DNA from: Escherichia coli
GTDB lineage: Bacteria > Pseudomonadota > Gammaproteobacteria > Enterobacterales > Enterobacteriaceae
Length of the DNA stretch: 21,020 bases
NCBI RefSeq assembly: GCF_003334385.1
Contig: NZ_QOWN01000060.1
Direction: 5' to 3' (one strand)
Positions 18,792 through 19,535 of this stretch are shown here, piece by piece. The notes beneath the pieces are model-generated. The model was not told where the DNA came from. It ran no database searches and saw nothing but the letters and a program-made list of their open reading frames with translations. Made by a program: the position numbers and the translations under genes. Every line of letters starts with the position of its first letter. The stretch's first letter is position 1.

Positions 18792-19535
18792 ATGACACAG
18801 ACAGAATCAGCGATTCTGGCGCACGCCCGGCGATGTGCGCCAGCGGAGTCGTGCGGCTTTGTGGTAAGCACGCCGGAGGGGGAAAGATATTTCCCCTGCG
18901 TGAATATCTCCGGTGAGCCGGAGGCGTATTTCCGTATGTCGCCGGAAGACTGGCTGCAGGCAGAAATGCAGGGTGAGATTGTGGCGCTGGTCCACAGCCA
19001 CCCCGGTGGTCTGCCCTGGCTGAGTGAGGCCGACCGGCGGCTGCAGGTGCAGAGTGATTTGCCGTGGTGGCTGGTCTGCCGGGGGACGATTCATAAGTTC
19101 CGCTGTGTGCCGCATCTCACCGGGCGGCGCTTTGAGCACGGGGTGACGGACTGTTACACGCTGTTCCGGGATGCTTATCATCTGGCGGGGATTGAGATGC
19201 CGAATTTTCATCGCGGGGATGACTGGTGGCGTCACGGTCAGAATCTCTATCTGGATAATCTGGAGGCCACAGGGCTGTATCAGGTGCCGTTGTCAGCGGC
19301 GCAGCCGGGCGATGTGCTGCTGTGCTGTTTTGGTTCATCGGTGCCGAATCATGCCGCCATTTACTGCGGCGACGGCGAGCTGTTGCACCATATTCCTGAA
19401 CAACTGAGCAAACGAGAGAGGTATACAGACAAATGGCAGCGACGCACACACTCCCTCTGGCGTCACCGGGCATGGCACGCATCTGCCTTTACGGGGATTT
19501 ACAACGATTTGGCCGCCGCATCGACCTTCGTGTGA
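18792..19535 (+). CDS. K: Tail tip assembly protein K (lambda K-like) with JAB/MPN metalloprotease and NlpC/P60-type motifs
   Basis: Strong similarity to lambda K. JAMM motif elements are present: E-x-CG (AESCGFVV, residues ~19-22) and HSHPGGLPWLSEAD (HxH-x7-S-x2-D). A Cys...His pair (GVTDCYTLF...HAAIYCGDGELLHH) is consistent with an NlpC/P60 domain. The long start at 18792 is needed to include the JAMM Glu. Confidence 0.88.
   Translation: MTQTESAILAHARRCAPAESCGFVVSTPEGERYFPCVNISGEPEAYFRMSPEDWLQAEMQGEIVALVHSHPGGLPWLSEADRRLQVQSDLPWWLVCRGTIHKFRCVPHLTGRRFEHGVTDCYTLFRDAYHLAGIEMPNFHRGDDWWRHGQNLYLDNLEATGLYQVPLSAAQPGDVLLCCFGSSVPNHAAIYCGDGELLHHIPEQLSKRERYTDKWQRRTHSLWRHRAWHASAFTGIYNDLAAASTFV

Follow-up and report, generated by a model that had tools for sequence, protein, structure and literature searches.

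The stretch 18792..19535 of the window, i.e., of the whole 21,020-nucleotide stretch of Escherichia coli DNA (contig NZ_QOWN01000060.1) that was analysed, most probably holds the complete gene K, coding for a tail tip assembly protein of 247 aa (28.2 kDa predicted) that starts at the ATG at 18792..18794, and the 199-aa K of phage lambda most probably stems from a single G that is missing from the lambda reference sequence; we put the probability of this reading at about 0.9. All features below are on the plus strand unless stated otherwise. The ATG, at which an earlier note on this DNA had already placed the start of the ORF, opens a frame of 247 codons that closes at 19535 and lies 5 nt behind the TAA stop codon of gene L (18784..18786). 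Residues 18–25 read AESCGFVV and fall within the first 48 codons, again in agreement with that note, and the GAG codon of Glu19, which belongs to the E-x-C-G element of the JAMM motif, is at 18846..18848. The internal ATG at 18936..18938 (Met49, MSPEDW...) is the start of the classical 199-aa annotation. The GGAGG upstream of it is also where the note had placed it, at 18920..18924 with 11 nt between its last G and the A of the ATG; it is Shine-Dalgarno-like in sequence and is part of the K coding sequence itself, in codons Pro43-Glu44-Ala45. This internal start gives 199 aa, as many as the K CDS of J02459/NC_001416 (14276..14875) encodes and as the note had stated for the classical lambda annotation. 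Two antisense ORFs, 18064..18798 and 18807..19235 (minus strand), were without support and were taken as shadows of the high-GC coding strand.

Residues 68–81 of K are HSHPGGLPWLSEAD, an exact H-x-H-x7-S-x2-D that had been correctly recognized beforehand. The complete JAMM motif, E-x(n)-H-S/T-H-x7-S-x2-D, is found in the long K only, with E19 followed by H68-S69-H70-x7-S78-x2-D81 (18993..19034), the latter part containing the zinc ligands and the oxyanion Ser. The motif was defined by Ambroggio et al., the role of its Glu included, and lambda K was listed there among the JAMM proteins of unknown function (PMC300881). The claim that the short form would lack this Glu holds, whereas its description as metal-coordinating does not, as the JAMM Glu positions the catalytic water (PMC300881). 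By analogy, E19 of K is predicted to position the catalytic water, H68, H70, and D81 would bind zinc, and S78 would stabilise the intermediate.

Two peptidase domains are recognized in the long K by Pfam. Prok-JAB (PF14464) matches residues 3–104 (E 1e-13; model positions 3–112 of 114), which places a JAB/MPN+ (JAMM) metallopeptidase domain at 18798..19103, and NLPC_P60 (PF00877) matches residues 111–224 (E 3.7e-12), i.e., an NlpC/P60 (C40) cysteine peptidase domain at 19122..19463 that contains Cys121 (codon 19152-19154) and would be the second predicted peptidase domain of K. The Prok-JAB match is lost in the 199-aa form. The same is seen with the NCBIfam desampylase model NF041370 (a JAMM enzyme acting on archaeal ubiquitin-like proteins), which matches residues 3–103 of the long form at 29.7 bits, below the equivalog cut-off of 130 bits, and gives no match to the short form; likewise, in the precomputed Pfam assignments of protein-database clusters, 199-aa calls carry PF00877 only, and both domains are listed for clusters of ~247 aa. 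A clean alignment (A1) of 87 K homologues at 31–58% identity was used as a profile against the PDB and retrieved 2kks (3e-14), 2kcq (5e-13), and PfJAMM1, the JAMM1 enzyme of Pyrococcus furiosus (2e-11). These solved JAB proteins (2kks, 2kcq, 5lda, 5ld9) align from profile position 2–16 onward, and Glu19 is aligned with the E-x-C-G Glu of 2kks, 2kcq, and PfJAMM1, which answers the question of whether the Glu near residue 19 falls on the catalytic Glu.

For the structural modeling, AlphaFold2 on the single K sequence gave an unusable model (pLDDT 36.5), and the 87-sequence alignment A1 was used instead, with pLDDT 97 and pTM 0.91. In this model residues 3–15 form a helix and residues 21–27 and 30–36 form strands, so that residues 1–48 are predicted to be the first helix and the first two strands of the JAB fold. 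Foldseek superposed the model on PfJAMM1 (5ld9/5lda) with an rmsd of 2.5–2.6 Å over ~108 columns and a target-normalised TM-score of 0.66–0.69; matches to CSN5, Rpn11, and AMSH were also obtained, and the C-terminal half matched the NlpC/P60 enzymes MepS/Spr and Acd33800. The model and the Foldseek matches together assign a predicted MPN fold to the N-terminal half of K. Please note that the NlpC/P60 triad was assigned by conservation and not by superposition of side chains. Because codons 1–48 supply helix 1, two β-strands, and the catalytic Glu in the model, a product started at Met49 would have a broken and inactive JAB remnant.

An open frame of 48 codons alone is not significant. The upstream extension goes beyond chance because the Prok-JAB profile match runs across it and because it is conserved in distant homologues. 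Searched exhaustively, a set of 1.84 billion representative proteins contained 2744 matches to K, and in full-length homologues at 31–60% identity, query residue ~4–10 is aligned with the homologue's own residue ~3–15. E19 is invariant in the 87 sequences of A1, together with G22, N38, H68, H70, D81, D120, and C121, and S69, S78, H187, H199, and H200 are at least 90% conserved there; among 105 representatives, E19 is conserved in 95%. The note had named absence of protein-level conservation upstream of Met49 as what would speak against the long form, and the region proved to be conserved. Position 49 is different: most distant homologues have Ile, Leu, or Val in place of Met49 (Ile in 65 and Met in 14 of 107 distant representatives), and the called N-termini of ~85 of 107 cluster representatives are within −4 to +8 residues of a K start at ATG 18792.

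The nucleotide sequences of close relatives carry a coding signal over the same region. In 71 unique close sequences, the variable sites in codons 1–48 are distributed as 10/3/26 over codon positions 1/2/3, and pN/pS is 0.25 in the K frame versus 2.7 and 2.65 in the other frames. The internal ATG is kept in 68 of these 71 relatives (codon 49 is CTG in the other three) and GGAGG in 69, the latter being no more conserved than the coding sequence around it. Among relatives in IMG/VR, 80 of 80 match K in one frame by tblastn and 76 of them cover query residues 1–247. Judged from this material, Met49 is most likely an ordinary internal Met.

The gene layout gives a consistent picture. The window carries the tail module of a lambda-like prophage in the order H-M-L-K-I-J, and K is placed between L (Phage_tail_L) and I (Lambda_tail_I), upstream of J, as is expected of TAPK, the two-domain phage K family discussed below. 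Within ~90 related loci, the spacer between the L stop and the K ATG is 4–5 nt in most, and where its length varies the ATG is kept. The whole module, M-L-K-I-J, was recovered for a distant homologue at 49% identity, and the L-K-I core was found on shorter contigs with K at 34% and 31% identity; in distant loci, K overlaps the L stop by 4 nt (ATGA) or follows 11 nt later. With distant K starts overlapping or closely following L, the K family leaves no room for a 148-nt gap between L and K. A purine-rich Shine-Dalgarno motif is absent from the sequence ttaacaaactttcgcagtaaatccc upstream of ATG 18792, nor is there an obvious one at the L-K junction of the distant loci, and for this reason we propose that initiation at ATG 18792 is probably coupled to L termination. 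A scan for promoters and terminators around the K start gave nothing above shuffle expectation. PGAP annotates a 744-nt/247-aa K CDS in the prophage of E. coli SCU-104, which is 99.5% identical. The view that the long form is the functional frame, already favored in the note, is therefore supported by the span of the JAB match, the invariant E19, the coding-type substitution pattern, the L-K junctions, and the PGAP annotation; our literature search for an N-terminal peptide, an intact mass, or start-site profiling of K found none.

The 199-aa annotation of lambda has a different origin from what might be assumed, namely that the annotators chose a downstream in-frame ATG. Alignments show that J02459/NC_001416 lacks the G found at window position 18926 (18926..18926), i.e., a G after lambda base 14266, and a whole-genome comparison of LC730321 with J02459 gives the same +G after 14266. 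The junction reads GGAGGC-TATTTCC in J02459/NC_001416 and in OR974322, and GGAGGCGTATTTCC in the window, LC730321, KT232076, PV340536, OM418626, and EU078592. Because the missing G puts the upstream 143 nt out of frame, the 199-aa ORF alone exists in J02459. The upstream ATG is still present in NC_001416/J02459, at lambda 14133, out of frame with K, and opens an ORF of 76 codons only. The 247-codon frame is open in all five lambda-lineage records that carry the G, i.e., the lambda isolates LC730321, KT232076, and PV340536, the lambda imm434 hybrid OM418626, and the prophage DE3 EU078592.

Whether these records represent the laboratory phage itself is relevant here. LC730321 (Lambda_AGU) was considered as the same strain as the reference and rejected, as there are 15 differences, including an intact stf of the Ur-lambda type; relative to J02459, it has a C inserted at 20832/20833 that restores stf, and a 1-nt deletion at 138, and it is thus distinct from the PaPa laboratory strain. 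LC730321 being of Ur-lambda type, the stf lesion of lambda PaPa (CCC instead of CCCC, a frameshift) was therefore used as the lineage marker. The lesion and the G in K occur together in OM418626, PV340536, and EU078592, which makes the G part of the laboratory lambda lineage. Because records with the PaPa lesion keep the G in K, the omission is, by these alignments, private to the 1982 record and to the records identical to it at the junction. Two such records are OR974322, from a chicken cloacal swab, which is identical to the reference over a 501-nt query of the L-K junction, and OR474059, a 100% match on the same query; both may be derived from the reference. Most simply, the missing G would be a sequencing error in a G/C-rich stretch of the 1982 sequence; a private mutation of the 1982 stock is formally possible and less likely.

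Lesions of other kinds are seen in two more K sequences. PV340541 (mEp332) has GGAGGGG where all others have GGAGGGGG, a contraction of the homopolymer from G5 to G4 at locus positions 1310–1320, corresponding to window 18875–18883, so that the long K frame runs for 36 codons only; its K is annotated with 233 aa, from a different, out-of-register ATG. This contraction is probably a homopolymer sequencing error. In a metagenomic relative from ENA, scaffold ERZ28660271, TAT is changed to TAG, turning Tyr46 into a stop two codons before the internal ATG; the TAG lies 6 nt upstream of the called K start and only the 199-aa frame is open there. A pseudogene or an error in the sequencing could explain the stop, as could a natural variant that gets by with the short form.

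Other readings of the region have to be weighed against a single 247-aa product. The internal start might be used in addition, giving two isoforms, i.e., 247 aa through coupling to L and 199 aa from the internal ATG with its GGAGG, the short form having a role of its own. The motif is perfect, it and the ATG are kept in nearly all close relatives (counts above), gene callers favor the internal ATG in thousands of sequences (the long frame was open in 3 of the 4 inspected contigs with a 199-aa call), and nested in-frame products are common in lambda, e.g., C/Nu3. However, Met49 is replaced in most distant homologues and by a CTG codon in three close relatives; GGAGG is accounted for by Pro-Glu-Ala/Glu/Asp codons whose conservation is no higher than that of the neighboring coding sequence; its 11-nt spacing to the ATG exceeds the optimum; and in the AlphaFold2 model the short product would start midway through the JAB fold. 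We regard a second, functional isoform as improbable. It is more improbable still that the classical annotation is simply right, i.e., that only 199 aa are made and the upstream 144 nt are an untranslated L-K spacer that is open by chance. The same strong Shine-Dalgarno-like motif, the lambda reference annotation itself, and the 199-aa annotations in DE3, HK629, and lambda imm434 would speak for it, but these annotations are copied from a record whose frame is broken by a missing base, and the supposed spacer has the substitution bias at third positions (pN/pS 0.25), encodes the invariant E-x-C-G together with one third of a confidently predicted domain, and has no counterpart after L in distant homologues.

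The missing G could also be real in lambda, with K made by a programmed −1 frameshift or as a 76-aa N-terminal piece plus the 199-aa K. J02459 does have two frames offset by −1, there is a G-rich run, GGGGGAAAG, upstream of the junction, lambda uses a −1 frameshift in G-T, and the reference version is common to two other records, OR974322 and OR474059. Against this stand the five independently deposited lambda-lineage sequences with the G, three of them with the PaPa-specific stf lesion, and the 80 of 80 IMG/VR relatives that are in a single frame; the junction has no slippery heptamer, the phase of the G run is wrong, and OR974322, identical to the reference over 501 nt, may be reference-derived. 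A programmed −1 frameshift in reference lambda was rejected, as the other lambda-lineage records have the intact frame, and we give the genuine absence of the G the smallest chance of all the readings considered. A 247-aa K from ATG 18792, with a one-base omission in the reference, is thus our preferred interpretation.

The short annotation has spread widely. It is present in the DE3, HK629, and lambda imm434 records, where it is copied by similarity to sequences with an intact long frame, and four protein-database clusters of 199 aa (P0051, P0064, P0066, and P0067) hold ~11,000 member sequences; the internal GGAGG leads ab initio gene callers to the same short form. Several other K matches are fusions with L or I, recognizable by PF05100 or PF06805 on one and the same product, and suggest that draft assemblies contain more frame errors around K. 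The truncated length has also entered the literature: in a review of 2020, gpK was analysed as "199 residues in total", and no peptidase domain other than the C-terminal one was noticed. The two-domain architecture of K is already published (2003–2006) and the 247-aa CDS is routine in bacterial genomes annotated by PGAP; our literature search found no paper that corrects the start of lambda K or base 14266, and the start-codon or reference-sequence problem of lambda is not addressed in the part of Iyer et al. 2006 (PMC1779556) available to us. We consider the point about base 14266 a curation matter that is worth passing on, of practical rather than conceptual value: NC_001416/J02459, the most used phage reference, gives K without one third of its JAB domain and without the catalytic Glu, and for cloning, modeling, or mutating lambda gpK the 247-aa ORF should be used, i.e., the reference with a G added after base 14266.

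The corrected ORF also makes an old hypothesis on K and its neighbor properly testable. In Iyer et al. 2006 (PMC1779556), TAPK is described as JAB plus NlpC/P60 adjoining the ubiquitin-like TAPI, TAPI has a ThiS/MoaD-like ubiquitin-like domain that ends in a conserved Gly, and release of this domain at its C-terminal Gly by the JAB was proposed. Gene I of the window (19472..20074) overlaps the 3′ end of K and encodes a ubiquitin-like N-terminal domain followed by a plug domain. During tail-tip assembly, the putative JAB of K would remove the ubiquitin-like N-terminal domain of gpI at the conserved C-terminal Gly. More specifically, the JAB may be an active zinc peptidase that clips gpI at Gly-Gly (lambda I 100–101) and leaves the plug domain in the tail, a proposal that we hold tentatively and at somewhat less than even odds. 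Mass spectrometry of virions did not reveal gpK (PMC10721106); in one closed-tail cryo-EM study gpI is resolved from residue 101 onward (PMC11101478), and in a second closed-tail study from residue 135 onward. Residue 101 sits directly at the Gly100-Gly101 that ends the β-grasp domain, and the Gly at this domain end is invariant in distant I homologues. The absence of gpK from virions, the resolved start of gpI, and the invariant Gly are circumstantially consistent with cleavage of I by K; an experimental test of this cleavage was not found in the literature. If true, this would be a phage-encoded deubiquitinase-like maturation step, and every experiment with a 199-aa gpK clone would have used a catalytically dead fragment.

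The start of gene I deserves a remark in its own right. There are two in-frame ATGs, at 19433 and 19472, and the K/I overlap region is 19433–19535. The classical lambda I start (MAATHTLPLASPG...) gives a 103-nt overlap with K and has GAGAGG 11 nt upstream, and PGAP takes the second ATG (MARICLYGDL...), which reduces the overlap to 64 nt. It is also with this second ATG that distant I homologues line up at their N-termini, directly at the first strand of the ubiquitin-like domain, and by this comparison lambda I may have been given a start 13 codons too far upstream.

Compared with known systems, the window K is closest to lambda gpK (NP_040598/AAA96551, annotated with 199 aa), which is the same gene in the same M-L-K-I-J module and is essential for tail assembly. 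With the missing G restored, the two proteins are nearly identical over 247 residues: there are few substitutions over the shared 199 residues, and the N-terminal 48 are identical to those of re-sequenced lambda. The lambda reference K comprises residues 49–247 only, whereas the window, re-sequenced lambda, and PGAP-annotated prophages encode 247 aa. Elsewhere in the module, the tape measure gene H (window 14524–17757) encodes 1077 aa versus 853 aa in lambda, and if length scales with the tape measure protein, the tail encoded in the window would be ~25% longer than that of lambda.

The JAMM motif, the E-x-C-G element, and the fold are common to K and to PfJAMM1 (5LD9/5LDA), the HvJAMM1 desampylase family (NF041370), DSY2949 (2KKS), and AfJAMM, at ~22–25% identity to these prokaryotic and archaeal enzymes; unlike them, K is phage-encoded and fused to an NlpC/P60 domain, and its substrate is putative. 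The C-terminal half resembles E. coli MepS/Spr and Clostridioides difficile Acd33800 in its Pfam match, Cys/His residues, and structure, but neither a signal peptide nor a cell-wall-binding domain was noted in K, in contrast to enzymes of the MepS/Spr type; K acts in tail assembly in the cytoplasm and is absent from virions, so that it does not have to act on peptidoglycan. In both its two-domain architecture and its gene neighborhood, the window K is identical to TAPK as defined by Iyer, Burroughs & Aravind (2006).
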